Made by a program: the position numbers and the translations under genes. The notes beneath the pieces were generated by a model. It ran no database searches and had not been told where the DNA came from. It saw nothing but the letters and a program-made list of their open reading frames with translations. From an uncultured Bacilli bacterium (lineage in GTDB: Bacteria > Bacillota_I > Bacilli_A > RF39 > UBA660), in NCBI GenBank assembly GCA_934120015.1, contig CAKOTD010000004.1:5338-69337 (forward strand): a stretch of DNA of 64,000 nt, given 5' to 3'. Shown here piece by piece: positions 5,223 through 63,010 of this stretch (positions are counted from its first letter, which is position 1; the number at the start of each line of letters is the position of its first letter).

Positions 5223-6506
5223 ATGACAAGAATAAATGTATTACCTGCAGATACATATTATTTAATTAATAAGTCTTTTTTTACAGAACAAGATAGAAAA
5301 ATGTTAACAATGTTTTATCAACCAATTATTGGAGTAATTGCCACTAGCCTTTATTTTACCCTATGGTCATTCTTGGATAGAGAAGAAGACAAAAAAGAAA
5401 AATTATATACACATTATCATTTAATGACAAATATGAAATTAAAACTCGATGTTATAGTTGAGGCAAGAGAAAAATTAGAAGGAATTGGTCTTTTAAAGAC
5501 ATATTGTAGAAAGAATGAAAATGGAAATACTTTTATCTATGAAATGTTTTCTCCTTTATCAGTTTCTGAATTTCTAAGCAGCCCCTTATTAAATACTTTA
5601 TTAATAAGTAACATTGGGGAAAATGATTACAAAAAATTGATTAGTAATTTCGAAATAAAAAAACCTAACTATGATGATTATATAGATATTACCTGTAGTT
5701 TTAAAGATATTTATAATATAAAGAATGATGAAAAAATCGTAAACTTTGATAATAGTTATGAAAAAAAGAGTTCTAATAATATTAATGTAAAATGTAATAT
5801 TGATATTGATTCAGTTCTTGACATGATACCTGATGAGATGCTAAATAAAAATAGGATAAGCAAAGAAATTATTGATTTAATAAATAATTTAGTATATTTA
5901 TATGATTTTAATGAGGAACAATTAAAAAATGTATTGATTAATTCATTAGATACTTCTCATGTAATTGATAAAGAAAAATTAAGGTATAATGCAAGAAATT
6001 TATATAAATTTGATCATCATAGTTCAAAGCCTACAGCTATATATAAAACTAGTTCAAATAAGATAAGTGATACTGATGTATCAAATAAATCAAAAATAAT
6101 ATATTCGTTTGAAAACACTTCTCCTTATGATTTTTTAGTAAGTAAATATAACGGGGCGGTTCCTGCAAAAACAGATGTTAAATTAATAGAGTTTTTACTT
6201 GTTGATATGAAGCTAGAACCATCAGTGGTAAATGTATTAATTGATTATGTTTTAAAAACAAATAATAATAAATTAACCAAATCTTATGTAGAAACCATAG
6301 CTGGGCAATGGAAAAGAAATAATATCAGCACTGCTAGTGATGCTCTTAGTTTTGCAAAGAGAGAGTATTGCAATACAAGAAAAGGAAAAATTGCAAAAAA
6401 ACAAGATAGTCCTAAGTGGCTCAACAAAAAGATAGAATCTACTATTGCTACAAAAGAAGAACAAGAAAATATAACAAAAATGTTAAAAGAGTTAGTTGGT
6501 GAATAA
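5223..6506 (+). CDS. dnaB: Replication initiation and membrane attachment protein (Firmicute DnaB, DnaD-domain helicase-loading factor)
   Basis: N-terminal LTMFYQPIIGVIATSLYFTLW region and C-terminal DnaD-like repeat (YVETIAGQWKRNNI), immediately upstream of dnaI as in Bacillus. Confidence 0.75.
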   Translation: MTRINVLPADTYYLINKSFFTEQDRKMLTMFYQPIIGVIATSLYFTLWSFLDREEDKKEKLYTHYHLMTNMKLKLDVIVEAREKLEGIGLLKTYCRKNENGNTFIYEMFSPLSVSEFLSSPLLNTLLISNIGENDYKKLISNFEIKKPNYDDYIDITCSFKDIYNIKNDEKIVNFDNSYEKKSSNNINVKCNIDIDSVLDMIPDEMLNKNRISKEIIDLINNLVYLYDFNEEQLKNVLINSLDTSHVIDKEKLRYNARNLYKFDHHSSKPTAIYKTSSNKISDTDVSNKSKIIYSFENTSPYDFLVSKYNGAVPAKTDVKLIEFLLVDMKLEPSVVNVLIDYVLKTNNNKLTKSYVETIAGQWKRNNISTASDALSFAKREYCNTRKGKIAKKQDSPKWLNKKIESTIATKEEQENITKMLKELVGE

Positions 6507-42168: not shown

Positions 42169-43305
42169 TTAATTAGTACAGAGTCGTCTAATATCATATA
42201 GAAAAGAATAACTGAAATTTGTAGAACCACACTTTTCACATTTAAAATCTTTAAATTTTCTAGATAAAGAAGAAACAAAATCTTTAGTTAAAATTCTAGA
42301 TATAAGTAATCTACAAAATCTAATGTTGTTTCTTTTATTTCTATTACTAAGTAATCCATAATGCTTTATTTTGGTGAATTTACTAGGTAAAACATGTAAA
42401 AGAAATCTTCTGATAAATTCATCTGCAGTAATAGTCATAAGTTTAATTTTGGAATTATCTTTATAATCTTTATATTCAAAAGTAACATTACCATTTTCAA
42501 TATTTTTAATTCTATCATTAGAAATAGCTACTCTAAAAGAATATCTACCAACATATTCAATTACATTTTCAGTTTTACCTTTAGGAGGTTCAATATAAGT
42601 AATCCAAGTTTTATTATAAAGAGGCTCTATAAATTTATTAAAAGATTTAAAGTTTTTAAGATTATTATTTAAAATAAGATTATTGAATTCATGTTTTAAA
42701 TAAAATAGAAATTTACCCTTAAATAAGGAACCTAAAACTTGAACTTTAAATAAATAATCATTACTACAAGTTATCCACTTATTATTTTTAAGTCCACCAC
42801 CCGTAACAATAGAATGAATATGAGGATGAAATTCCATAGTTTGACCCCAAGTATGAAGAATAGAAGTAATACCAACTCTAGCTCCTAACCATTTAGGATC
42901 ATCACATAATTCTAAAATAGACTCAGAGGTAGCTTTAAATAAAATGTCATAACAAATTTTTTGATTATATAAAAATAATTCATTCAATTCATAAGGAACA
43001 GTAGTAATAATATGAAAATACTTGGAGTCTAGTAAATAACTAGATTCATTTTGAATCCATTTTTCTCTTTTATAATTCTGACACATAGGGCAATGTCTGT
43101 TACGACAAGAATTAAATCCAAAATATTCCTCACCACAATCTAGACAAGTAGAAATATGATAACCTAATTCTTTAGTGCCACAGTTTCTAATTGAATTAAA
43201 TACTTTCCATTGTTCTTTAGATAAATTATGATTTTTAATATATTGGTTACCATAAAGATTAAATATATTTTGAATAGAATACTTAGACATTTTTAGTAAC
43301 CTCAT
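42169..43305 (-). CDS. IS91-family rolling-circle (HUH, Y2) transposase
   Basis: Zn-binding N-terminus CLDCGEEY...CRNRHCPMCQ, HUH motif FHPHIHSIVTGGG, tyrosine motif YVGRYSFRVAIS. Confidence 0.88.
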   Translation of the reverse strand: MRLLKMSKYSIQNIFNLYGNQYIKNHNLSKEQWKVFNSIRNCGTKELGYHISTCLDCGEEYFGFNSCRNRHCPMCQNYKREKWIQNESSYLLDSKYFHIITTVPYELNELFLYNQKICYDILFKATSESILELCDDPKWLGARVGITSILHTWGQTMEFHPHIHSIVTGGGLKNNKWITCSNDYLFKVQVLGSLFKGKFLFYLKHEFNNLILNNNLKNFKSFNKFIEPLYNKTWITYIEPPKGKTENVIEYVGRYSFRVAISNDRIKNIENGNVTFEYKDYKDNSKIKLMTITADEFIRRFLLHVLPSKFTKIKHYGLLSNRNKRNNIRFCRLLISRILTKDFVSSLSRKFKDFKCEKCGSTNFSYSFLYDIRRLCTN

Positions 43306-44140
43306 TTATTGGGGAATAAACATTTTTAAAATTTTCGGCCATATGTAGGTAAATAGAAGTAGTATTAATAGAAGAGTGACCCAATATATTTTTAAGTTCC
43401 CAAATATCACCACCAGCTTTAATAAATTCAGTGGCATAAGAATGCCTAAGAGTATGAAAAGTAATAGAATTATCCAAATTATTATTTTCTTTAATTTTTT
43501 GAAAGGCTTGTTTAATAGTAAAAGAATTTATGTGTGAATTTTTTGTTTTATTATATAAACCGGGGAACAAGAAATCATTGTTAATGATATTTTTATTTCT
43601 AAAATAATATGATTGTAAGAGTTTTAAAGTAAAATTAGGAAGAGGAGCAAACCTTTCTTTATTACCTTTACCAATAATTCTTATTTTGTGATCTTTACAT
43701 AAAATATCACTAACCTTTAAAGAGGCAACTTCAGAAATTCTAAGTCCAGAACCATAGGCAAGAATAATCCAAAGTTTATATTTTAAGTTGAATTCAGAAT
43801 TAAACATTTTAACGAAATCATGTTTTGATATTAATTTAGGAAATCTAGATGGGATTTTAGTTTGGGGTAATAAAATATTATTAAAATCAATATTAAAATT
43901 AACTAAATAATAATATTTAATAGCAGCCCGATTAACATTAATAGTAGCAGCAGAGCAACCAATATTAATGAAATTTTCTTTTAAATATTCTAAAATATCA
44001 CTTTCATTTAAATTTACTAAGTTTTTAAATTTGTAATAATTTTTAAACCTATTAATACAACTTAGATAATTAGAAATAGTTCTAGTAGAACAATTTCTTA
44101 GCATTAATAGATCTTTGACTTTTTGTAAGTCATTATTCAT
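43283..44140 (-). CDS. Tyrosine site-specific recombinase (phage-integrase family)
   Basis: GLRISEV (Arg I), HTLRHSYATEFI, LGHSSINTTSIYLH (catalytic Tyr). ATG at 44140 preferred. The 3' end overlaps the transposase start. Confidence 0.88.
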   Translation of the reverse strand: MNNDLQKVKDLLMLRNCSTRTISNYLSCINRFKNYYKFKNLVNLNESDILEYLKENFINIGCSAATINVNRAAIKYYYLVNFNIDFNNILLPQTKIPSRFPKLISKHDFVKMFNSEFNLKYKLWIILAYGSGLRISEVASLKVSDILCKDHKIRIIGKGNKERFAPLPNFTLKLLQSYYFRNKNIINNDFLFPGLYNKTKNSHINSFTIKQAFQKIKENNNLDNSITFHTLRHSYATEFIKAGGDIWELKNILGHSSINTTSIYLHMAENFKNVYSPINEVTKNV

Positions 44141-44311
44141 AAAAAATACCTTCTTTCTATAAATTGTCAAAACAAAATATAAAAAAAGGCTTTATTAAAT
44201 TAAAAAAATATGTATAATATTAAGTAAGCACTTGAGTTATATTTTGCTTTCGACGGCTTATATAATAAACTCATGTGCTTTTTTTGTAAATAGAAATTTA
44301 AACTAAAATAG

Positions 44312-46307: not shown

Positions 46308-46333
46308 AGTAACATAATTATTACACATTTTAT

Positions 46334-46362
46334 AAAGAACAGCTAATTGTTCTTTATTTTTT
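46334..46362 (+). terminator. Rho-independent terminator
   Basis: AAAGAACA-gctaat-TGTTCTTT followed by ATTTTTT. Confidence 0.75.
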
Positions 46363-46375
46363 AAGGTTTTATTAA

Positions 46376-46403
46376 ATAATTTATAATGTATAAAAGGGTT
46401 AAT
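46376..46403 (+). other. Hybrid dif-like site (attL): XerC arm + central region intact, XerD arm degenerate
   Basis: ATAATTTATAA-TGTATA-AAAGGGTTAAT. It shares the 16 nt TAATTTATAATGTATA with the site at 55822-55849; only 5 of 11 positions match in the right arm. Confidence 0.7.
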
Positions 46404-46476
46404 TTTAAGTTACTTTTTAAAAAACTATATGAATTAAGGCTAAAGTAGGGTAGACTTTTTGAAAAATATATTATAT

Positions 46477-46501
46477 AAAAAAAGAAACCATTTATGGTTT
46501 C
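46477..46501 (-). terminator. Rho-independent terminator of the leftward regulator operon
   Basis: On the minus strand: GAAACCAT-aa-ATGGTTTC followed by TTTTTTT. Confidence 0.7.
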
Positions 46502-46565
46502 ATCAGTTTTAATTTATGAAACAGCAAGGATTAAACCTTGTTGTTTTATTTTATAATATTTTGTG

Positions 46566-46778
46566 CTATTTCTTTTCTATAGTGATTATTAGATTATGTT
46601 TTTTTGCAATTTCCATTAATTTATTAAATGTAATTTTGTTTTTGTCTGTTTCTATCTTTGTAATGGAATCTCTTCCATAATTTATTGTCTGACCGAATTC
46701 TTTTTGATTTAATTCTGTCCATTGTCTAATTATTTTTATTGTTTCTCCTGGTGTGTAATTATTTGCTATTATTTTCAT
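46566..46778 (-). CDS. XRE-family HTH protein (second regulator of the leftward operon)
   Basis: 70 aa, IRQWTELNQKEFGQTINYGRDSITKIE HTH. Confidence 0.75.
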   Translation of the reverse strand: MKIIANNYTPGETIKIIRQWTELNQKEFGQTINYGRDSITKIETDKNKITFNKLMEIAKKHNLIITIEKK

Positions 46779-46779
46779 T

Positions 46780-46872
46780 TTATTTATTTATAAAGTTTAA
46801 TGTGTAATTAAATATTGTTATAAATATAATTATTCCACCTATTATCACTAATGCTTTTATAAATTTACTCAT
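46780..46872 (-). CDS. 30-aa hydrophobic peptide between the two XRE genes (below the ORF-track cutoff)
   Basis: MSKFIKALVIIGGIIIFITIFNYTLNFINK. Its ATG overlaps the upstream TAA (TAATG), and its stop lies 1 nt before the next ATG. Confidence 0.45.
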   Translation of the reverse strand: MSKFIKALVIIGGIIIFITIFNYTLNFINK

Positions 46873-47108
46873 TATATATCTTTCCTTTCTAAATCTTTGA
46901 TTTTATATTCTTTTTTTGTAGTATTATCTTTAAATATAATTTCGAAATTGCATTCTTTTGCTATTTGTTCTATTGTTTCATAAGTTGGATTACTATATTT
47001 TGTTTCATATCCTGATAATGTTGTTTGTGCCACATTTAGTAATTTTGCTAGTTGTATTTGACTAAATCCTTTTTGCTTTCTCATGAACCTTAACATTTTT
47101 CCAATCAT
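46872..47108 (-). CDS. XRE-family HTH repressor candidate (cI-like position)
   Basis: 78 aa, LRFMRKQKGFSQIQLAKLLNVAQTTLSGYE. Divergent from the structural operon. GAGGGGGA RBS. Confidence 0.8.
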   Translation of the reverse strand: MIGKMLRFMRKQKGFSQIQLAKLLNVAQTTLSGYETKYSNPTYETIEQIAKECNFEIIFKDNTTKKEYKIKDLERKDI

Positions 47109-47161
47109 TTTGTTTATTATTCCCCCTCATAAAAATTATTGCATTTCTCGTTATTTTTTTC

Positions 47162-47190
47162 TTGACTTAACGAGATACTCGTTATATAAT
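47162..47190 (+). promoter_or_regulatory. Rightward phage promoter with a palindromic operator filling the spacer
   Basis: TTGACT - 17 nt - TATAAT. The 17-nt spacer is the perfect inverted repeat TAACGAG-ATA-CTCGTTA. Confidence 0.75.
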
Positions 47191-47201
47191 GTTTTTAGAA
47201 A

Positions 47202-47218
47202 TAACGAATAACTCGGTA
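47202..47218 (+). promoter_or_regulatory. Second operator copy downstream of the -10
   Basis: TAACGAATAACTCGGTA matches the spacer palindrome at 13 of 17 positions. A further half-site CTCGTTA lies at 47147-47153. Confidence 0.55.
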
Positions 47219-47264
47219 TTTCTAACCCCTGAAAATAACTATAAGAAAGGAGTAGAGAAGAGAA

Positions 47265-47561
47265 ATGAAAGAAACAGAAAATAAGACAAGTATTATAGTT
47301 ACAAAGGTAGTTCGTATTGAAAAAATAAAGAAAACTTTAATTGAATATCTTATGAAAGATGTAAGAAATACAAATATTAAAGGTTCTTCAACACATCAAT
47401 TGTGGCTAGAAGGTACAAAATATTTTGATAATTTCAATGAAGAGAAAAATATGTATATTCCTTTGGATGCTGAATTTGAGTATGTTGTATGCAACAATGG
47501 ACAATACAGAATTTCATTAACTCAAATATATGACACTGATAGTTCATGCTTGTTGGTATAA
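47265..47561 (+). CDS. Hypothetical phage protein (first gene of the rightward operon)
   Basis: 98 aa, AAGGAG RBS. No motif. Overlaps a 66-aa ORF (47530-47730) in another frame. Confidence 0.55.
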   Translation: MKETENKTSIIVTKVVRIEKIKKTLIEYLMKDVRNTNIKGSSTHQLWLEGTKYFDNFNEEKNMYIPLDAEFEYVVCNNGQYRISLTQIYDTDSSCLLV

Positions 47562-47796
47562 CCCTAATACACAAAGCTTTTACATGAAATATTATAGATT
47601 TTCGATGTTTAGTTTTGTTGGTTTTACTAATACATTTGGTCATCGTATTGTAAGTTATTTGGTTTACTACCCTCCTCTAGGGAAATTTATAACTTATGAA
47701 TACGCTTATAGCTTAGTGTATAAAAGATAAATTTGTTAAAAATGCATTTTTATATATATGAATAAAAGAATAAATAATAAAAAGGTGGTGTTAAAT

Positions 47797-47982
47797 ATGG
47801 AAGGAATGGCTACATCAGCTAATATCACATCAGTTCTTGAAGTGTTAAAAACTATTGCGGTATTTATTTTAGGTTTAGTATCTGAAATTGTTAACGTAGT
47901 AATAGCAAGCCCTTTACTATTAATTCCAATTGGAGTAGTAATGCTAAGAACTGTTATTTCAGTATTTAGAAGCTTATATTAA
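47797..47982 (+). CDS. Small hydrophobic protein, coat-protein candidate
   Basis: 61 aa from the ATG after an AAAGGTGG RBS. Two hydrophobic stretches and a basic C-terminus (RTVISVFRSLY). Confidence 0.55.
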   Translation: MEGMATSANITSVLEVLKTIAVFILGLVSEIVNVVIASPLLLIPIGVVMLRTVISVFRSLY

Positions 47983-48056
47983 TAGCTATCTAAATTCCAT
48001 ATAGAGGCTAGTGTGTAAGCACTAGTTTTTATTTTATATATTGAGGTTGATTAATA

Positions 48057-48353
48057 ATGGAAAATTTAGAAAATTGCTTTTTTAGAGTATATGAATATAC
48101 ATTTACTTATCGTGGTGATAGTTATATAGCAGATTATTGTTCATCAGGTAAATTTGGCTCATATTGTGAGAAAGATGGTATAACTTACAATAATGTAGAG
48201 TATAAATCAGTTGTTGTTGGTTGTGAAGATAATAAATTTAATAATATTAAGATTTATGAATTTAGTTCTTTATTTTTGATTTTAATTTCCCTTTTATTAT
48301 TTTGGTATTTTTGGCATTTGATTTATAAATTACTTAAAGGGGTTAAAATTTAA
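48057..48353 (+). CDS. Cys-containing protein with a C-terminal TM anchor
   Basis: 98 aa. The soluble N-terminal part has 4 Cys; C-terminal helix LFLILISLLLFWYFWHLIY. Confidence 0.5.
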   Translation: MENLENCFFRVYEYTFTYRGDSYIADYCSSGKFGSYCEKDGITYNNVEYKSVVVGCEDNKFNNIKIYEFSSLFLILISLLLFWYFWHLIYKLLKGVKI

Positions 48354-48429
48354 TGATAAGATTTAGAACAAGAAAATTTTTATATTATACATTGAAGAGA
48401 TTAATAAAAAAAATATGGAGGTAGATTAT

Positions 48430-48540
48430 ATGAAAAAAATATTAGAAATAATCAAAGAAAACAAAGAAATAATAAATAAGGTACTTAATGTATTATGCAT
48501 TATATCAATAATTGTAATTTTAGTTTTAGCATTCATATAA
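48430..48540 (+). CDS. 36-aa TM peptide (below the ORF-track cutoff), coat-protein candidate
   Basis: MKKILEIIKENKEIINKVLNVLCIISIIVILVLAFI. A GGAGG RBS lies 8 nt upstream. Confidence 0.5.
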   Translation: MKKILEIIKENKEIINKVLNVLCIISIIVILVLAFI

Positions 48541-48550
48541 GAGGTGTAAT

Positions 48551-48793
48551 ATGAGTATTTTAAAGAAAATAAAAAAGAAAAATGAATTGTTAAGTGATAT
48601 AGAATTAAAAGAGTATGAAAAAGAACTATATTTATTACAAGATAAAGCAATTAATATAACAAGTAGAGGAAACCCTACAAAGAAAGATTTTCAAGAACTT
48701 TTAACTATTGGAAAAAGAATAAAAACTATTAAGAAGATATTAAAAGAGGCAAATAAAAAATGTTTAAAGCAAGAAAAAAAGAATATCAATTAG
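48551..48793 (+). CDS. Small basic coiled-coil protein
   Basis: 80 aa, K-rich, GAGGTG RBS. Confidence 0.5.
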   Translation: MSILKKIKKKNELLSDIELKEYEKELYLLQDKAINITSRGNPTKKDFQELLTIGKRIKTIKKILKEANKKCLKQEKKNIN

Positions 48794-48886
48794 ATATTTT
48801 TGGTAATTGGGTTTCTTTAGATTATATAAAATTGTGCAAAGATTGTGATAGAAAATATAAATTGAAAGTGAAAAGAGGTTTTAATA

Positions 48887-49075
48887 ATGTTAGTAAGAAA
48901 AAGTAATGTACCTACCAATTTTGTATTGCCAGTTATATTAAATGGTTCATATGAGCTTTACTGGTATTATGAAAGTGAGAAAATGCTTTTTAAGGCATAT
49001 AATCAGTTAAAAAAAATAAATGGTAACTATAAACCTAAGTATCCAATAATTTTAGAAGAGGTGATTGAATTATGA
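48887..49075 (+). CDS. Hypothetical small phage protein
   Basis: 62 aa, soluble, AGAGG RBS. Its stop overlaps the next ATG (ATGA). Confidence 0.45.
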   Translation: MLVRKSNVPTNFVLPVILNGSYELYWYYESEKMLFKAYNQLKKINGNYKPKYPIILEEVIEL

Positions 49076-49248
49076 TTATGTTTTTGTTAGGAATATCAAT
49101 TTCAGTTAATTTTTTATTAGGTTTTTTAGTTTATAAAATAAAAGATGAAAAGGAATTGAAGGAGGCTGTTGTCGATGAGGAGTGTTACAAAGATTTTTCA
49201 AAATCAAATAAACCAAGTTTTGATAAGTTTTTTAATAGTAATAAGTAG
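49072..49248 (+). CDS. 58-aa protein with an N-terminal TM helix (below the ORF-track cutoff)
   Basis: MIMFLLGISISVNFLLGFLVYKIKDEKE... ATGA coupling to the upstream ORF. The 3' end overlaps the start of the 701-aa gene in another frame. Confidence 0.4.
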   Translation: MIMFLLGISISVNFLLGFLVYKIKDEKELKEAVVDEECYKDFSKSNKPSFDKFFNSNK

Positions 49249-51280
49249 TTTTTTTCTTGTAAATAGTAGTGCTAAAGCAGCTACTGATTATTCCACTTAT
49301 TTTTATGAATATGATAGTGAATTTGTGGAATCTACTATAAATCATGAGAATTTTAAAACAGCTTATGATAAGCTAATGGAATATTATACAAATGGTAATT
49401 ATAAGAATTATTTGATATATGCTTTTTATAATGCTAATAATATTAAACTTTCGATATTATTATTTGATACTGAAGATATTACAATAAATTTTAATTTAGA
49501 AAATAGTTATATAGGTTTAAGTTTTACACATGGCTATGAATATAATTGTACTTTAAGTGATTTAACATGTACAACTTCGGCTATTAACCGCTCTAAAACT
49601 TCTATAATTTCATTTTCTGGTGGTTCTAATAAATTAACAGATGAAAATATAATTAAAAATACTTTTTTAATTAATGATAGTCGTAAATTTTTCATTTATG
49701 AGTCTAGCACAGATAAGATATATACTAAAAATCCAAGTATTGAACATTTTAAGGATAGTGAAGGTAATATATTAGATAAAATTCCTGTTGCAAAAAAGAA
49801 AGCTAATATTACATTTGAACAGAATAATTATAAATATACAAATGGTGATAAAGAGTATGTGTATGCGGTCGACGTAAAAATTAATTTTAATGTAGATGAT
49901 AAAGATAAATATTATTATTTGTATAAATTTCCAACTGATGAAGATGATAGTTGGTATACTTATACACCAATCAAAGAACCAGTAAGTACAACAATTCATT
50001 TAACAGAAAATAAAGCTATATATGTAAAAATAGTTAATAAGGAAACAGATGAGCTTGTATATGATGTTACTTGGAATGTAGTTAGTATAAATTATAAAGA
50101 AAATTATACTTTAAAGAAAACTTATAATAGTGGAACAAATGGTAATGATTTATATAGCTTGAATATAACTAATTTGAATAAAGATTCAGTTAATTATGAT
50201 ATTCCATTTAAAATACAATTTGGTAGTAATGACTTTTCAAATAATTATGTTCCCCGTATAGTTGATATAAAAGGTTATTATGGATCAGATAGAAAAAAAG
50301 AAGATAAAAATGTAAAAATAAAAGATTTTAAATGTTATAGAGAAGTAGAAGGAGATAGTGAGGTTTTCTGTACAGGAACAATGACAAAGAATTTATCATT
50401 GTCCGCATATTATGAAATTATATTTGAAAATACAGAAAACTATTATTTATATTATTATGATAATTTTAGTGATGATTATAGAACTTTAGATATAACAACT
50501 AATTTATTTAAAGATTATAACAAATATCGTTTTAAAGATAATAGTAATAAAGCTTATATATCTTTAAAAAATAAAAATCAAAGTAATAAAAAGGGAAGTG
50601 TAATTCTTCCGTCGTATTATGTTACAAATGATGAATTAAATGTAAGAATGTTTGATTATAATTCTTATTCAAATGTTTTTGAAAACGAACATGTTTCGTT
50701 ATATTTAGAAGATAAATATTATCGAAAATTTGATTTTGAGATAACAGACACAATAATACCAGTTTTAACCAATAAGAAAGATAAGCATTGTGAAACTTAT
50801 CGTTATGGTGAAGGTACACCAAACATTGATGAAGGCGGTTATTATACATGGATAGGTGATATTAAAACTTTTGTCCCTTTTAGTCATAGAAATAATTATC
50901 TTTTTTCTAGTTATAATGAGGCTGTAACTTGTTATCAAGAAGAACCAGTATATTTCTATGTTCATAAAGATTTTTTAGTAACATTTAATAAAATCGATGA
51001 AAACAAAGAAAGTATTGGTAATGTTCCAATAACTGATGAAGAGGGAAATGTTATCTTGGTAGTAGGAAAAGATGATGATAATACAAATATTTATAAAGAA
51101 GAAAACAAAGGTTTCTTTGATCTAGTTAGTGAAAGTTTTTCTTTTTTTACTAAACCATTAATGGAATTTTTAAACATGTTTAATTATTTTTGGAACGGGT
51201 TAAACATAATAATTAAATATTTTATAGTGTTTGTAATAGTTTTCTTACTAGTTTTATTTATATTAAAGTTTCTTTTATAG
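49175..51280 (+). CDS. Large secreted, C-terminally membrane-anchored protein (pIII-like adsorption protein candidate)
   Basis: Signal peptide ...FFLVNSSAKA|AT, about 650 aa with no recognisable domain, terminal TM IIIKYFIVFVIVFLLVLFILKFLL. GGAGG RBS before the ATG at 49175. Confidence 0.7.
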   Translation: MRSVTKIFQNQINQVLISFLIVISSFFLVNSSAKAATDYSTYFYEYDSEFVESTINHENFKTAYDKLMEYYTNGNYKNYLIYAFYNANNIKLSILLFDTEDITINFNLENSYIGLSFTHGYEYNCTLSDLTCTTSAINRSKTSIISFSGGSNKLTDENIIKNTFLINDSRKFFIYESSTDKIYTKNPSIEHFKDSEGNILDKIPVAKKKANITFEQNNYKYTNGDKEYVYAVDVKINFNVDDKDKYYYLYKFPTDEDDSWYTYTPIKEPVSTTIHLTENKAIYVKIVNKETDELVYDVTWNVVSINYKENYTLKKTYNSGTNGNDLYSLNITNLNKDSVNYDIPFKIQFGSNDFSNNYVPRIVDIKGYYGSDRKKEDKNVKIKDFKCYREVEGDSEVFCTGTMTKNLSLSAYYEIIFENTENYYLYYYDNFSDDYRTLDITTNLFKDYNKYRFKDNSNKAYISLKNKNQSNKKGSVILPSYYVTNDELNVRMFDYNSYSNVFENEHVSLYLEDKYYRKFDFEITDTIIPVLTNKKDKHCETYRYGEGTPNIDEGGYYTWIGDIKTFVPFSHRNNYLFSSYNEAVTCYQEEPVYFYVHKDFLVTFNKIDENKESIGNVPITDEEGNVILVVGKDDDNTNIYKEENKGFFDLVSESFSFFTKPLMEFLNMFNYFWNGLNIIIKYFIVFVIVFLLVLFILKFLL

Positions 51281-51292
51281 GAGGTGTGTTTT

Positions 51293-51553
51293 ATGACAGA
51301 TATTATAAGTGTTATTACGGAATTTTTTGGTACGTTTTTAACTTTTATATCTACGTTTTTTGATTTAATAAAAAATTATATATCAAAAGGTTTAGGTTTT
51401 GTATCTACTTTGCTTAACATAGTCCCTAATTTTTTAATAAATGTCTTATTTCCGAATATGCCTCCATTTTTTCAAAGCTTATTCTATGGCTTATTTGGTT
51501 TTATGATGTTTGTATTATTAGTTAAATTAATAATGATGTTTACATTTAAGTAG
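51293..51553 (+). CDS. Small multi-TM membrane protein (pVI-like position)
   Basis: 86 aa, AGGAGG RBS, 3 hydrophobic segments. Confidence 0.6.
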   Translation: MTDIISVITEFFGTFLTFISTFFDLIKNYISKGLGFVSTLLNIVPNFLINVLFPNMPPFFQSLFYGLFGFMMFVLLVKLIMMFTFK

Positions 51554-51563
51554 GAGGTAATGT

Positions 51564-51725
51564 ATGGAAGATTTTGGGTTAAATATATATAACTTTGTTA
51601 AACAATTAATAGGACAAGTACCAATGGAAATGGAGTTTATATATGCTATTGGTACAATTATACTTATTATTATTGTATTTTTAATGGTTTATTTGCCATT
51701 TTCTTATTTATTAGGTAGGAGGTAG
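51564..51725 (+). CDS. 53-aa TM peptide (below the ORF-track cutoff)
   Basis: MEDFGLNIYNFVKQLIGQVPMEMEFIYAIGTIILIIIVFLMVYLPFSYLLGRR. AGGAGG RBS at 51552-51557. Confidence 0.55.
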   Translation: MEDFGLNIYNFVKQLIGQVPMEMEFIYAIGTIILIIIVFLMVYLPFSYLLGRR

Positions 51726-51730
51726 TTAAA

Positions 51731-52051
51731 ATGTATGATATTATTGATTTTTTCTTAACTATATTTGATAAGCTAGTTAATTTGTTAAATGTTAAATTTT
51801 TTGCTGATGTTGATATAACTTTTTTGCAAATAATTTTAATAGGCATAGCTTTAAAATATGTGTTTAAATTTTTATTTGGTGGTTTTAAAGAAATAGATAC
51901 AAGCACTAATTATATGAGTAGTGGTGTTGTATATAAATTATCAAATAAAGAACGTAAAAAAGAAATTGTTGAAACAAAAAAAGAACGCATGGTTGATGTA
52001 TTTGGTGATGGTACATATATGGTACCTTATAGTAAATATTATGGAAAGTAG
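51731..52051 (+). CDS. Small membrane protein
   Basis: 106 aa, AGGAGG RBS, N-terminal TM segments, basic middle region. Confidence 0.6.
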   Translation: MYDIIDFFLTIFDKLVNLLNVKFFADVDITFLQIILIGIALKYVFKFLFGGFKEIDTSTNYMSSGVVYKLSNKERKKEIVETKKERMVDVFGDGTYMVPYSKYYGK

Positions 52052-52059
52052 GGATTATA

Positions 52060-52239
52060 ATGTATACATTAATAAGTTTAGAAAAGATTATATCTTTTTT
52101 TGAAAAGTTTAACATTGATTTTACACAATTTACTAATTTTGAACAATCAATACTTATCGTTTTATGTAATATTTTATTTATATTATTTTGGTGGTTTGTA
52201 CTTAATTTATTATATAAAATTATTGTGAGGTTAGTATAA
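52060..52239 (+). CDS. 59-aa TM protein translationally coupled to the ATPase gene (below the ORF-track cutoff)
   Basis: MYTLISLEKIISFFEKFNIDFTQFTNFEQSILIVLCNILFILFWWFVLNLLYKIIVRLV. Its TAA overlaps the ATG at 52239 (TAATG). Confidence 0.5.
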   Translation: MYTLISLEKIISFFEKFNIDFTQFTNFEQSILIVLCNILFILFWWFVLNLLYKIIVRLV

Positions 52240-53324
52240 TGAAAAATAATGGTTTATATGCATTTTGTGGTATTCCTGGAAGTGGGAAAACCTTAACAGC
52301 TGTTAAAGTAGCTTTATCACATTATAAAAAAGAAAATATGCCTCATAAATACTATATTGCTTATCTTAAATATATATTGTTAAATAATAATTTATTTAAG
52401 TTTTTTGTTAAACTATTTAAAAAATATAATTTATATTTAATTTTAAAAAATAAATATTTAAATTGGTATAAATTAAATTATAGTAGCAAGGTTAAAGTTA
52501 ATCGTGTTTTAGCTAAAATAAGTATGTTATTATTTAAAATTTTAAAATATTTATTTAAATTTATTGTTTGTATTTATATATATGTTGTTCCTAGTTGGTT
52601 AGTTAAAATATTTTTGTTTATCTTGTTATTTTATACTAAAAAAATTATTAGTTGGTTTGATAGTTTAGATTATGAGTATATATGTACTTTTCCTTATAAG
52701 AAGATAAATAATGTGTATAGTACTTTTCCGATTTTGTTAGATAAGAAAAGAAATATATATTCTCATAAAGTATCTTTGTGGGACTTAAATAATTTATATT
52801 CGTTTTTGCCTAATTCCGTTATTATACTAGATGAAATTCAATTATTTGTTGATAGTGACGAATATAAAAATATAAAACTTAAAGATATTTTAGAAAAAAT
52901 AGCTAATTATTTTCAGGCACATAGACATTTTGGAATTAAGAATATAATTGTTACTTCACAAGGTGTAACTCGTATATTTAAAAAGTGTCGTGATGTATGT
53001 AGTGGGTATTTAAAATTGAATAAGGTTGTAAAATTTCCTTTTTTGCCAATTGGTTATATTAGCGGTACTTTTTATTATGATATAGACTATTACGGAAAGT
53101 ATATTCCTAAAAATAAAGAAGAAAGAAGAAAACTACCTTTCGAATATAAAAAGTATAGATGTTTTTGTAATATGAATAGGGTGTATAGTTCTTATGATAG
53201 TAGATATTTAGCAAATATGAATTATTCAAAGCCATTGTTGGAAAAGGGTTATTATGATAGTTTAAAAACAACGAAGGAAGATATTAAAGAGATATTTAAG
53301 AAGCCAGAAGAGTTTAGCAAGTGA
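52239..53324 (+). CDS. pI/Zot-like P-loop assembly ATPase
   Basis: LYAFCGIPGSGKTLTAVKVAL aligns with f1 pI VYFVTGKLGAGKTLVSVGKI. SVIILDEIQLF aligns with LLVLDECGTWF. FQAHRHFGIKNIIVTSQ aligns with FLHARKLGWDIIFLVQ. The f1 sequence is recalled from memory. Confidence 0.8.
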   Translation: MKNNGLYAFCGIPGSGKTLTAVKVALSHYKKENMPHKYYIAYLKYILLNNNLFKFFVKLFKKYNLYLILKNKYLNWYKLNYSSKVKVNRVLAKISMLLFKILKYLFKFIVCIYIYVVPSWLVKIFLFILLFYTKKIISWFDSLDYEYICTFPYKKINNVYSTFPILLDKKRNIYSHKVSLWDLNNLYSFLPNSVIILDEIQLFVDSDEYKNIKLKDILEKIANYFQAHRHFGIKNIIVTSQGVTRIFKKCRDVCSGYLKLNKVVKFPFLPIGYISGTFYYDIDYYGKYIPKNKEERRKLPFEYKKYRCFCNMNRVYSSYDSRYLANMNYSKPLLEKGYYDSLKTTKEDIKEIFKKPEEFSK

Positions 53325-53349
53325 AAAAAAGCCTTGCTTTTTCACTTGC
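53317..53349 (+). repeat. 12-bp perfect-stem hairpin spanning the ATPase stop codon
   Basis: GCAAGTGAAAAA-aagccttgc-TTTTTCACTTGC. Confidence 0.6.
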
Positions 53350-53687
53350 ATTATTATTATTTTTGTAGTCAATAGAACATGGAATAACGGAACTTGTGAA
53401 ACAAGTGAGTATATGCCGTGAAAGTCTATTGATTAAAGAAAATAATATTATAATTGGTTTTTTAATTCAAAAAGATTTTTCTTTTTGAATTGATTGCCCA
53501 CAACGGCAAGTTGTAGAAAGTTTTTGTTTTACTTTTTTTAAAAAGTAATAAAAATCGTTTTAATGGCATTTTTGGACGTTTTTAGTGCTTTATAATATAG
53601 ATATACTATATCGTTGTTAAAAACTTCGTAATTTGTCTCTTTTTGATGAAAATAAGCATGCATGAAATAGAGTAGGTGGTATTAAAT

Positions 53688-53933
53688 ATGAAAAGTGAGA
53701 TTGAAAGTTTAAAAAAACAGGTATGTTGTATAAGAGAATATGCTAAATGGCATGTAGATGCATTTACTAATGATATTTTAGATTATATAGATGACGATAG
53801 AATAGGTAATAAAGATTTTATTGACGAATTAAGGGAAGATAGAGAACATTGGAAAGATGTTGTTAAGTTGTGTGATAATGATTTTAACTTATATATGAAT
53901 AATGTAATTTCAAGATTTAATAGTGATAACTAA
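53688..53933 (+). CDS. Hypothetical acidic phage protein
   Basis: 81 aa, AGGTGG RBS. No motif. Confidence 0.5.
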   Translation: MKSEIESLKKQVCCIREYAKWHVDAFTNDILDYIDDDRIGNKDFIDELREDREHWKDVVKLCDNDFNLYMNNVISRFNSDN

Positions 53934-54103
53934 TTATAGAAAAATATATTGTATTGTTAATTTGAAATTGCATATTATTTACTATAATTAAATTTGCATT
54001 TCGTTTATGTCGTGAAAGTTCTTTACTTTTTGCTGGAAATTTTTGATATGATATGTGGTTATTGAAAGAGGGCAAGCGTTAATCTAAAATTCTTGATTTC
54101 GTA

Positions 54104-54289
54104 TTAAATATCGATATCATCAAAATCATAATCATAACAATCGACATTGTCGAATATATCTTCATCGTGTTCTTCGAATTTTTCAGGCTTCATTTTTTTC
54201 ATGATTTCAACCCACATGTCGATTGGTAAAACTACATCTTCATTATCGATATTAATACGAATAAATTCTATTTGTTTCATGCGTGACAC
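54104..54289 (-). CDS. Highly acidic 61-aa protein on the opposite strand
   Basis: MSRMKQIEF...EEHDEDIFDNVDCYDYDFDDIDI. AAGGAG RBS on the minus strand. Confidence 0.5.
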   Translation of the reverse strand: MSRMKQIEFIRINIDNEDVVLPIDMWVEIMKKMKPEKFEEHDEDIFDNVDCYDYDFDDIDI

Positions 54290-54446
54290 TCCTTTCTAGT
54301 AATCTTTCAATTACAAAGTTTTGAAATCAAAAATTGGAACAAAAAGTCAAGAAACATGAAATAAAAAGAAAAAAAATTTAATGTATAACTATGTTTGGCA
54401 ATTTCAACATTATACAATATAAATTATATTTTTAAGTTTATATAAC

Positions 54447-54478
54447 TATCTGGCAATTAGATATCTAATTGCCAGATA
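54447..54478. repeat. Perfect 32-bp palindrome
   Basis: TATCTGGCAATTAGAT|ATCTAATTGCCAGATA. Confidence 0.85.
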
Positions 54479-54497
54479 TAAAAAACAAAGTATCTAT

Positions 54498-54528
54498 ATG
54501 TACTAATAATTAAAAATAATTAGTACAT
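54498..54528. repeat. 31-bp near-perfect palindrome
   Basis: ATGTACTAATAATT-aaa-AATAATTAGTACAT, 13 of 14 pairs. Confidence 0.8.
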
Positions 54529-54549
54529 AAAATATATAAAATTTGGGTA

Positions 54550-54578
54550 TTGACAAAAAAATAAAAATAGTGTATCAC
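54550..54578 (+). promoter_or_regulatory. Candidate rep promoter
   Basis: TTGACA - 17 nt - TATCAC, with TG immediately upstream of the -10 (extended -10). Confidence 0.5.
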
Positions 54579-54600
54579 GCGCGCGCGCGTTTACTTGATA
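54577..54600 (+). other. Candidate double-strand origin: (CG)6 palindrome followed by a CTTGATA nick motif
   Basis: ACGCGCGCGCGCGT at 54577-54590, then TTA-CTTG|ATA at 54594-54600, 80 nt upstream of a pC194-type rep gene. Confidence 0.6.
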
Positions 54601-54681
54601 CTTATTAGACAGAAGCTGACCCACCCTTATTTTATATAGAACAAAGGTAACCATTGAGATAACTTTTTCTGGAGGTGTTAT

Positions 54682-55785
54682 ATGTGTTTAGATGAATTTA
54701 AAGATATTACATATAATATATCTGATTTTCAGGTAAACAAAGATTTTATTTTAGAAACTTATAATAATACGATTTATAATAATATAATTATAGAATATTA
54801 CAAAAAATTACAAGAAGAGAGTAGGGTATTTGGACATAATACTATAAACAACGATAAAATCAAAAGTATTGAAGGTTGTAATAAAATGTGGTTAATAAAT
54901 ACTTATCACGAAAATAGAATAAAAGATTTTGTTAGTACTAATTTGTGTAAAGATAAATTTTGTAACAATTGTAAGAAAGTGAAACAAGCGGTAAGATTAT
55001 CTCGATATATACCTTTATTATCAAAATATAAAGATAATTTATATCATATTGTTTTTACTCAACCAAATGTATGTGGGAAAGATTTAGAAATTTGTTTAAA
55101 AAAAATGTCTAGTAGTTTTAGTAAATTAATTCGTATTATAAGAGGTAATTATCGTTGTTTTATTGATTTTAGTAAATATGGTTTTTTAGGTTCTGTTCGG
55201 TCATTTGAAACAACATTTAAAAAAGATGTTTATCATCCGCATTTCCATTGTGCATTTGCTTTTAACAATTTAGTTTTAGATAAAAAAGTTAAAAACCAAT
55301 ATTCATATTCTAATTGTAATAATGAAATTAGGTTATTTAGTGAATTTGAAATTATTTTACAAAAATTATGGTATATGTTATATAATGATATTCCAATAAC
55401 AGAAAATAATTTTAATATATTAGATATTGGTTATAGTGTTATATGTGATAAATTTAAAGATGATGATTATATTGAGTTATTTAAATATATGACAAAGTCT
55501 ACTAATGAAGATAATGAAATATTAACATATGATAATTTTAAAGCTTTATATTATGCATTGTATAATAAAAAACAGATACAAGGTTATGGATGTTTTTACA
55601 ATATAACTGATGATGAAATAACAGAAAATGAAATTGAAAAAATAAGAGCTTCAATACGATTATTTTTAGATAGTGACGAACAATACACAACAGATTTTGA
55701 GTATTTGCCATCGTTATTAGTTGATAATGAATATACTTTAATTAGTAGAAAATCAATATATGAATATTTAAAAAAAATTAAATGA
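54682..55785 (+). CDS. Rolling-circle replication initiator, pC194/pUB110-type HUH Rep
   Basis: Motif 1 HIVFTQPN, motif 2 YHPHFHCAFAF (HUH), motif 3 ELFKYMTKS (E-x3-Y). GGAGGTG RBS. Confidence 0.8.
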   Translation: MCLDEFKDITYNISDFQVNKDFILETYNNTIYNNIIIEYYKKLQEESRVFGHNTINNDKIKSIEGCNKMWLINTYHENRIKDFVSTNLCKDKFCNNCKKVKQAVRLSRYIPLLSKYKDNLYHIVFTQPNVCGKDLEICLKKMSSSFSKLIRIIRGNYRCFIDFSKYGFLGSVRSFETTFKKDVYHPHFHCAFAFNNLVLDKKVKNQYSYSNCNNEIRLFSEFEIILQKLWYMLYNDIPITENNFNILDIGYSVICDKFKDDDYIELFKYMTKSTNEDNEILTYDNFKALYYALYNKKQIQGYGCFYNITDDEITENEIEKIRASIRLFLDSDEQYTTDFEYLPSLLVDNEYTLISRKSIYEYLKKIK

Positions 55786-55821
55786 TACCAAGTTTGCCTT
55801 TATTTATATAGGTCAAACTAA

Positions 55822-55849
55822 TTAATTTATAATGTATATTATGTTAACT
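55822..55849 (+). other. Chromosomal dif site (XerC arm - 6-bp centre - XerD arm)
   Basis: TTAATTTATAA-TGTATA-TTATGTTAACT. The centre is identical to E. coli dif TGTATA. The XerD arm matches E. coli TTATGTTAAAT and B. subtilis TTATGTAAACT at 10 of 11 positions each. Confidence 0.8.
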
Positions 55850-62134: not shown

Positions 62135-63010
62135 TTATCCATGTGGATGACAACTATGATAATTTTTTAAAGTTGTTTTTTTTGAAATATTTGTATATAT
62201 CTGTGTAGTTGAGATACTAGAATGTCCTAACAACTCTTGAATGCTTCTAAGATCAGCACCATTTTCAAGTAAGTGTGTAGCAAAAGAATGCCTAAGTGTA
62301 TGCGGTGAAAATGATTTGTTAATATTTTTTTCAAGTGCTAGTTTTTGTAATAATTTAAAAAATGCTTGCCTAGATATTTTGTCACCATGATTATTTAAAA
62401 ATAAGTAATCACTTGATTTGTTTTTTGAAAGCCATCCTCTTGCATTTTCAAGATAAAGTTTAACTGCAGAAGCTGCATAATCACTAATAGGTATAATTCT
62501 TTCTTTACTCCCTTTTCCAAATACTCGTATAGTATTATTTTCATAATTAATATCATGCATACTTACATTAACTAATTCACTTACACGAAGTCCACTGGCA
62601 TACATAAGCTCTAACATAGCTTTATTACGATAATCATAATAATCTTTTAACTCTATATTGAGAAGATTATCTACATCTTCATATGATAATACTTTAGGTA
62701 TATTTTTTGAAAGCTTAGGTCTTTGTACCTGCTGCATCGGATTAATTTTTAAACCTTTGTATCTCATCAAAAATTTATAAAAACTTTTTAATATAGATAT
62801 ATGATTAGATATAGTAGATACATTATAATTTTGATCATATAAATGTTTTAAGTAGTTAGTAATTTTCTCATAAGTAATTTCCTTTACATTACAATTATTA
62901 TAAAAAACACTGAACTGATTTAAACAAAAATCGTATCTACATATAGTATTATCACTATATTTTCTATCTACCTGCAAGTATATTTTAAATGACTCAATCA
63001 AATCATGCAT
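62135..63010 (-). CDS. xerD: Tyrosine recombinase XerD (RipX-like)
   Basis: SGLRVSELV, HTLRHSFATHLLENGADLRSIQELLGHSSISTTQIYT. Position upstream of deoB. Confidence 0.8.
   Translation of the reverse strand: MHDLIESFKIYLQVDRKYSDNTICRYDFCLNQFSVFYNNCNVKEITYEKITNYLKHLYDQNYNVSTISNHISILKSFYKFLMRYKGLKINPMQQVQRPKLSKNIPKVLSYEDVDNLLNIELKDYYDYRNKAMLELMYASGLRVSELVNVSMHDINYENNTIRVFGKGSKERIIPISDYAASAVKLYLENARGWLSKNKSSDYLFLNNHGDKISRQAFFKLLQKLALEKNINKSFSPHTLRHSFATHLLENGADLRSIQELLGHSSISTTQIYTNISKKTTLKNYHSCHPHG

Follow-up and report, generated by a model that had tools for sequence, protein, structure and literature searches.

An inovirus-like prophage without an integrase in the dif site of an uncultured gut Bacilli bacterium, very probably integrated by host Xer recombination

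The 64,000-nucleotide stretch of DNA analysed here (the window) comes from an uncultured Bacilli bacterium (contig CAKOTD010000004.1) and carries, between two sites that resemble dif, a 9.4-kb block with the genes of a filamentous phage. We consider it very probable that this block is a temperate inovirus without an integrase, integrated by site-specific recombination between its own dif-like attachment site (attP) and the host dif. The phage arms of the attachment sites track the dif of each host, the integrase is a swapped-in module in relatives, and the site occupied is dif itself; together, these points argue for the Xer recombinases rather than for the phage replication protein (Rep), chance or RecA. 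An earlier reading of the letters alone (the original prediction) had already proposed Xer-mediated integration from the two sites. Going beyond it, we find that the block is an inovirus prophage, that its host is a Gram-positive-type spore-former and that most empty copies of the site are centred on TGTATG.

Two dif-like sites at the replication terminus

The block is bounded by the following sites.

46376..46403, + strand: attL, ATAATTTATAA-TGTATA-AAAGGGTTAAT, with a XerC-type arm from the host, the 6-bp centre common to both sites and an arm from the phage
55822..55849, + strand: attR, TTAATTTATAA-TGTATA-TTATGTTAACT, which serves the lysogen as its working dif, with a XerC-type arm from the phage, the same centre and the XerD arm from the host

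Both 28-mers read as originally described and at the same positions. The 16 identical nucleotides (left arm plus centre) said to be common to them are the 16-mer TAATTTATAATGTATA, which occurs exactly twice in the window, both times on the + strand, against 0.02 copies expected from dinucleotide shuffles; none of 100 shuffled windows held two copies. The centre of the 55822 site equals that of E. coli dif, and its right arm is identical at 10 of 11 positions to the arm of E. coli and likewise to that of B. subtilis, the two reference sites being established sequences; this agrees with the single mismatch claimed before. The attL right arm AAAGGGTTAAT is indeed degenerate and not XerD-like, with 5 of 11 XerD-arm matches in register; GTTAA emerges with a shift of 1 nt. 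An exact dif core, ATAA-N6-TTATGTTAA, has a single match in the window, at 55829. The dif motif taken alone would not single out the site: with one mismatch allowed, the core occurs 2 times against 3.3 expected in a window of 25% G+C, not above chance. What makes the site significant is the exactness of the repeat, the place where it lies and the comparison with other contigs and phages, not the motif.

The GC skew runs at about +0.2 to +0.37 as far as ~55 kb and at −0.2 to −0.34 from 56 kb onward, so that the cumulative skew peaks at 55–57 kb of the window, the region of the 55822 site. Gene orientation reverses at the same switch (~55–57 kb). The dif site can serve as a marker for the replication terminus in this uncultured species.

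Two side observations concern the junctions. The sequences to the left of the XerC arms, 46333–46392 and 55779–55838, are alike (72% over 60 nt, including CTTTATTT…AGGT), a similarity not seen in the free relative L058 described below. In sample ERR7745411, one contig (L005) ends at window position 46396 and another (L189) starts at 46380, with a 17-nt overlap only, while attR is traversed; such breaks on both sides of attL may reflect heterogeneity at the left junction, though they have no clear reading.

Gene content of the block

The stretch between the two sites is 9,418 bp long (46404–55821). We compared its 20 open reading frames (ORFs) of at least 50 aa with Pfam, and ten of them with PHROGs too. 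The features are as follows.

46566..46778, − strand: 70-aa helix-turn-helix (HTH) protein, leftmost in the prophage and closest to attL; Pfam HTH_3 2.7e-5 (weak XRE), PHROG transcriptional regulator
46872..47108, − strand: 78-aa Cro/CI-type repressor, divergent from the structural genes; Pfam HTH_3 8.6e-14, Phage_CI_repr 2.6e-5
47265..49248, + strand: block of small early/structural ORFs; no Pfam or PHROG family matched
47758–47982, + strand: 74-aa protein with hydrophobic segments in this block, a coat-protein candidate
48887–49075, + strand: 62-aa ORF of the same block, widely conserved
49169..51280, + strand: 703-aa protein that, by hydropathy, starts with a signal-like hydrophobic segment and has a membrane anchor at its C-terminus; no family match (Pfam, PHROGs)
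51284..52239, + strand: four small membrane proteins of 89, 53, 106 and 59 aa with transmembrane-like segments, typical of inovirus coat/assembly proteins
52239..53324, + strand: Zot/pI-like morphogenesis ATPase, an inovirus hallmark; Pfam Zot 5.4e-7, 29.7 bits (cut-off 20.3), PHROG 197 Zot-like 1.1e-8
54447..54589, + strand: hairpin region upstream of rep, read from the sequence, with a 32-nt perfect palindrome at 54447–54478 (TATCTGGCAATTAGATATCTAATTGCCAGATA), an imperfect hairpin at 54497–54529 and (CG)6 at 54578–54589
54682..55785, + strand: Rep_1-family rolling-circle initiator of the HUH type, its N-terminal region zinc-binding and IS91-like; Pfam Rep_1 4.5e-13

A Zot/pI ATPase, a rolling-circle Rep, small transmembrane proteins and a genome of 5–12 kb coded mostly on one strand are what defines Inoviridae-like elements, and the block has all of them. 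It is an intact inovirus-like prophage, identified here from its genes. Neither an integrase nor a transposase nor a serine recombinase was found among the 20 ORFs (Pfam; PHROGs for ten), whose matches were to HTH, Zot and Rep_1 families only; the claim that the element encodes no recombinase of its own is thereby borne out.

Several of these genes have counterparts in related phages. The 70-aa HTH protein is 41% identical to a homologue in L058 and had generic XRE-type matches only in the PDB; homologues of the 78-aa repressor lie in the same place in the prophages L182 and L187. The architecture of the 703-aa protein is that of a pIII-like adsorption protein, and it is 57% identical to the (split) large ORF of L058. 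The four small membrane proteins share 65–84% identity with those of L058 and 46–69% with those of L063 and L182. Among GenBank phage records, the Zot-like protein matched Dulem virus 59 alone, an Inoviridae entry from faeces with whose "ZOT protein" it shares 42% identity; neither the prophage DNA nor Rep matched any of them. Rep has 556 homologues, many on contigs of 6–10 kb, and attR follows its stop codon after 36 nt.

The hairpin region is probably the replication origin or a packaging signal. The k=31 assemblies of two samples have contigs that break within the 32-nt palindrome. Genetic code table 4 (Mollicutes) was considered for this DNA of 25% G+C; the main ORFs were unchanged by it, and table 11 was kept.

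Empty sites and lysogens of the same species

Conspecific contigs were found in public assemblies by exact look-up of the flanking proteins; they come from human-gut metagenomes and differ from the window by 0–16 single-nucleotide polymorphisms per 2-kb flank. On those without the block, a gene for a 262-aa protein runs straight to the side of the ZIP-transporter gene with one 28-mer in between. In L002, L003, L012 and L020, this 28-mer is ATAATTTATAA-TGTATA-TTATGTTAACT, exactly the native dif that had been predicted from the two junctions. Empty-site contigs part from the window sequence directly after the TGTATA of attL, and attR differs from the empty-site dif at its first base only. A block-less strain with a junction unrelated to the predicted dif was looked for, and none turned up.

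The other six distinct empty-site contigs, L004 and L006–L010, are centred on TGTATG, and L017 is a further TGTATG contig (L014–L016 are L008–L010 retrieved again and not independent). One or two of the TGTATG contigs also have C at arm position 2. The TGTATA allele, at the centre position equivalent to window 55838, is present on two flank haplotypes, and all lysogens have it. The centre of the phage attP matches this A allele only, and the allele of the dif centre may be a compatibility determinant, by analogy with the dif1 variants of V. cholerae. We considered whether the polymorphism could reveal the order of strand exchange; this failed, since all lysogens are one clone.

Relatives and their attachment sites

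The design deduced for the attP of the window phage, a good XerC arm and a full match of the centre next to an arm that is not XerD-like, is directly visible in relatives whose genomes were recovered free, in agreement with the architecture of the original prediction. The closest, L058, is a circularly permuted genome of 9.7 kb whose large ORF is split over the contig ends; its identity to the window phage is 78% for Zot, 79–85% for the coat-size ORFs and 60% for Rep. Its attP lies just after rep and reads ATAATTTATAA-TGTATA-TAAAGTTTTAC, in which the XerC arm plus centre is identical to the host dif of the window at 17 of 17 positions and the right arm is non-XerD. L063 and L064 are one circular genome of 7.0 kb in two permutations from two samples, with an attP of the same left-armed kind and other arms. 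L184, a free genome of 7.4 kb, has a left-armed attP with another arm as well. At ~5420–5520, it shows two tandem attP-like copies ~70 nt apart, ATTATGTATAA-TGTATC-… and ATTATGTATAA-TGTATA-…, each followed by a hairpin; these copies, which differ at the last base of the centre, may target two dif alleles.

Lysogens of related species (L182, L187 and L025) adjoin a homologue of the same flanking gene as in the window. In L182, attL is AAAGTGTATAA-TGTATG-AAAAAGCAATT and attR is AAAGTGTATAA-TGTATG-TTATGTTAACT. L187 has ACTTCGTATAA-TTTATA-CTATAAAATAA and AGTTCGTATAA-TTTATA-TTATGTTAACT, with the arm A(C/G)TTCGTATAA. In both, the phage arm and centre copy the species-specific XerC arm and centre of the host itself, and L025 repeats the pattern; these are independent phage–host pairs. 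The centres of attL and attR are identical in all four left-armed lysogens.

Other relatives use the opposite half of dif. L024 (2481–2508 and 11066–11093) and L061 (3195–3222 and 11084–11111) have a mirror attP directly after rep, with a perfect XerD arm plus centre and a degenerate XerC arm (TTCTTCCAAAG and ATATTATAAAG, respectively). In L061, the two junction centres differ (TATGTA and TGTATA), and an isolated extra XerD arm lies 58 nt off. In L025 (1–6397), two different inoviruses stand in tandem around one complete dif, CTTGTGTATAA-TGTATA-TTATGTTAACT (at 1284): a Rep_1 phage on the XerC side and, on the XerD side, a Rep_OBD/Zot phage that ends at AGTTAGTATCG-TGTATA-TTATGTTAACT (6370). 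By analogy with the arrays of Vibrio, we read this as an array of integrative mobile elements that exploit Xer (IMEXs). The orientation of dif relative to the gene for the 262-aa protein or its homologue and to the ZIP-transporter gene varies: in L182 and L025, it is the XerD arm that points towards the homologue; in the window and in L061, the XerC arm is on that side.

L059 and L185 are without a dif-like site and encode a tyrosine integrase downstream of rep, as the next gene in L059 and after three small ORFs in L185. A tyrosine integrase thus stands in for the dif-like attP in these relatives, and the phage group seems to integrate via tyrosine recombination, with the module swapped.

For the attP of the window phage, we also tried the looser pattern AATTTATAATGTATA-N0-1-AAAG. 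It retrieved 116 metagenome loci, none of which encodes relatives of Rep or Zot; L158 alone gave an HTH78-like tblastn match. The group of L116, L140 and L158 appeared attP-like at first and turned out to be an ordinary intergenic promoter region.

Host genes and a neighbouring mobile element

Outside the block, these features of the window bear on the question.

62135..63010, − strand: host xerD, 6.3 kb from dif; TIGR02225 329.8 bits, cut-off 329.6
42169–43305, − strand: IS91-family Y2 transposase, overlapping the tyrosine recombinase at 43283–44170
43283–44170, − strand: non-Xer tyrosine recombinase, the only other tyrosine recombinase in the window, paired with the IS91-family transposase

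The assignment of 62135–63010 to the host xerD, made in the original prediction, passes on the XerD model by a marginal score; on the XerC model, the same ORF scores 309.3, below the cut-off of 335.15. Its nearest non-conspecific XerD is 67% identical, and the xerD–dif neighbourhood is kept in the empty-site contigs and in L187. Contigs of the window lineage encode the sporulation protein SpoIIM and a peptidase S55, which we take to be SpoIVB-type, and the related locus L061 encodes a germination protease of the family Peptidase_A25. Partly on these sporulation genes, the host is a Gram-positive-type spore-former in Bacillota/Bacilli.

The transposase/recombinase pair, which sits between spoIIM and mnmA, occurs in all contigs of the lysogen lineage (L001, L005 and L188) and is missing from the empty-site contigs that reach there (L002–L004 and L006–L008); it is a separate mobile element.

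Proposed integration route and its alternatives

We propose the following course of events. In the circular double-stranded replicative form, attP would lie 36 nt past the rep stop codon and read TTAATTTATAA-TGTATA-AAAGGGTTAAT; so deduced, it shares 16 of the 17 positions of XerC arm plus centre with the host site (attB). The host Xer recombinases, XerD and a XerC/CodV presumably encoded elsewhere, would synapse this attP with the chromosomal dif ATAATTTATAA-TGTATA-TTATGTTAACT, and strands would be exchanged at the borders of the shared 6-bp centre. In the products, attL combines the host XerC arm with the non-XerD arm of the phage and is a crippled site, and attR combines the phage XerC arm with the host XerD arm, forming a complete dif that is kept at the terminus and should still be able to resolve chromosome dimers. 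Lysogeny would presumably be maintained by the two HTH repressors at the left end. New genomes would presumably arise from the single prophage copy via Xer-mediated excision, attL recombining with attR across their identical centres, with Rep-driven rolling-circle replication then starting in the hairpin region upstream of rep. The anatomy of the sites, the empty site, the prophage content, the attP of free relatives and the presence of XerD are directly observed; catalysis by Xer proteins, the recombinase that acts first, its activation and excision are inferred.

Because the centre is identical at both junctions in the four left-armed lysogens, our data indirectly favour a complete two-strand exchange, like that of the V. 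cholerae satellite phage TLCφ and the gonococcal genetic island (GGI), over a route that relies on XerC alone and is resolved by replication, as in VGJφ and CTXφ. In the VGJφ-like form of that route, XerC would act on the good arms of the double-stranded form and exchange one strand pair, replication would resolve the Holliday junction and catalysis by XerD would be unneeded. We judge it unlikely, though a serious alternative. It would fit an attP that keeps the XerC arm alone and a phage in which the XerD activator XafT was not found; moreover, the septal translocases in this host phylum are not known to activate the XerD/XerC homologues directly (RipX/CodV in B. subtilis, where SpoIIIE and SftA are not known as direct recombinase activators; PMC5357621). 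However, such a route needs homology on the XerC side of the centre only, yet 6 of 6 centre positions match in every left-armed lysogen. The fit of the phage centre to the TGTATA allele, with lysogens that are never TGTATG, also speaks against it, a weak point given that the lysogens are clonal.

Entry of the CTXφ type appears very improbable here. In it, (+) single-stranded DNA (ssDNA) folds two inverted dif-like half-sites into a duplex attP(+), at which XerC irreversibly swaps one strand pair, and the junction is left to replication to resolve. An inovirus does pass through ssDNA, folding of the deduced attP region is better than that of its shuffles (z = −4.1), and the − strand has, at 54411–54427 beside the palindromes, a near-copy of host XerC arm and centre in inverted orientation (ATAATTTATATTGTATA then ATGTTGAAATT). 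That copy, however, is 1.4 kb away, is conserved in no relative and is probably due to chance; no second inverted dif-like site was found near attP at the spacing of CTXφ (~90 nt apart). In the predicted fold, the XerC arm base-pairs with the degenerate one, part of the centre stays in a loop and no XerD arm forms. The double-stranded attP is already a direct mimic of dif with an identical centre; attL and attR, moreover, always have the same centre.

We also give little credence to the view that Xer is uninvolved and that the HUH Rep of the phage works as an IS91-like rolling-circle transposase/integrase that targets dif. The attP does lie directly after rep in all relatives, and Rep is weakly similar to the IS91 zinc-binding domain (Pfam Zn_Tnp_IS91 0.0066; NCBIfam IS91 1.6e-5, far below cut-off). 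HUH enzymes, though, require just a short nick site, and here the crossover falls within a 17-bp identity of XerC arm plus centre that co-varies with the host dif arm in independent phage–host pairs. Relatives with the same Rep family carry a tyrosine integrase when they have no dif-like attP, and two others of that family (L024 and L061) use the opposite half of dif. Hardly credible is insertion by the neighbouring tyrosine recombinase (43283–44170) and IS91-family transposase, or a repeat produced by chance or by homologous recombination. The pair accompanies every lysogen contig of the lineage and is missing from empty-site contigs, a co-occurrence that is explained by the lysogens being one clone; the recombinase lies outside the element, 2.2 kb off and past two housekeeping genes, and lysogens of related phages elsewhere do without it (in L182 and L025, spoIIM adjoins mnmA). 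A chance repeat is excluded by the two copies observed against 0.02 expected, and 16–17 bp is too short for efficient RecA recombination.

Several points weigh against the Xer-mediated integration that we prefer. Lysogen contigs match the window at 100% identity across 9.6 kb, with flanks that are identical too, so they represent one clone and a single integration event. No XerC paralogue was found within the 64-kb window, and XerD passes its NCBIfam cut-off by 0.2 bits only. The deduced attP junction of the window phage (…CAAACTAATTAATTTATAATGTATAAAAGGGTTAATTTT…) had no exact-pattern match in viral or metagenome contigs. No XafT/DUF3653 activator was detected in the prophage (no match at E ≤ 0.01 for ten ORFs and at E ≤ 1 for ten more), though a non-homologous factor may exist; XerD would have to be recruited to, or activated on, an attP without a XerD arm in some other way. 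Finally, the case for Xer dependence is one of sequence comparison.

Significance and comparison with known Xer-exploiting elements

The element sits in the terminus dif, encodes no integrase and has a dif-mimic attP, one junction of which regenerates a complete dif. By these sequence criteria, it is an IMEX, in which XerC/XerD would be the catalysts. Literature searches yielded general reviews only and no Gram-positive IMEX when Xer exploitation was combined with Firmicutes, Bacillota or inoviruses of Gram-positive bacteria; the IMEXs named in the literature examined, from Vibrio, Neisseria and Enterobacter, plus titles on Xanthomonas and Legionellales, are all proteobacterial. The concept and the site design are already known; what is new is the phylum of the host and the lineage of the phage. 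This suggests that the Xer hijacking known from cholera phages operates in Gram-positive bacteria too. A further-reaching reading is that these are the first Gram-positive IMEXs with an Xer-activation route unlike the known ones: without XafT, recombination would be triggered by a small phage protein that has escaped recognition or by the half-site attP, and the polymorphism of the dif centre would determine resistance or compatibility, in the way that dif1 variants do towards CTXφ. We put this forward tentatively, as a possibility that the odds do not favour.

Together with its relatives, the locus indicates that dif serves as the attachment site of those filamentous phages of gut Bacilli that have no integrase. 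This yields a simple rule for the borders of inovirus prophages in Firmicute genomes and metagenome-assembled genomes. It also provides a natural system for studying how the XerC/XerD homologues (CodV/RipX in B. subtilis) could be activated without FtsK-gamma or XafT, and the alleles of the host dif centre offer an example of possible control of phage compatibility.

Small Zot/pI prophages of gut Firmicutes with direct-repeat flanks are known from Enterocloster (PMC10061712) and from the catalogue of Roux et al. 2019 (PMC6813254), and the window phage resembles them in these respects; Xer and dif go unmentioned in both papers (0 occurrences of "Xer"). With CTXφ and VGJφ, it shares the exploitation of host Xer at dif by a filamentous phage without an integrase. 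It differs from CTXφ, whose attP is folded ssDNA from two inverted sites, a design not seen in the window phage, and from VGJφ, which has both arms and partial centre homology, whereas the attP here has no XerD arm and a centre identical at 6 of 6 positions.

The likeness drawn by the original prediction was to the TLCφ/GGI class. It holds for the architecture of the site and breaks down for XafT (DUF3653), the defining factor of the TLCφ type, which was not detected here. The attP of TLCφ has a good XerC arm, a centre equal to that of dif and a strongly diverged XerD arm (PMC5357621, PMC6744903). Like the window phage, TLCφ has a left-armed attP, regenerates dif and encodes no integrase, and it integrates in double-stranded form. 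Unlike the window phage, in which no DUF3653 was found, it encodes XafT (HTH plus DUF3653), which activates XerD, and XafT-type IMEXs have been reported from gamma- and beta-proteobacteria only (PMC6744903). TLCφ is also a satellite, whereas the window phage has a full morphogenesis set and a spore-former of the Bacillota as host. The GGI of Neisseria shares the site architecture and encodes no XafT (PMC5357621, PMC6744903), and its stability has been ascribed to FtsK stripping XerCD from the degenerate site; it differs in being a 57-kb island with a type IV secretion system, not a phage, and in being proteobacterial.

Another parallel is with the catalogue of Vibrio IMEXs, which comprises a left-armed 17-bp attP class as well as right-armed and full-length forms and tandem arrays (PMC12715192). 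The terminal gene pairs differ: rstR/xafT or rstR/zot in Vibrio, and HTH/rep here, with a Rep_1-family initiator and gut Bacilli as hosts. The range of designs is alike, with one arm plus centre in the window phage, the opposite arm in L024 and L061, a tandem array in L025 and an integrase module as the alternative in other relatives.

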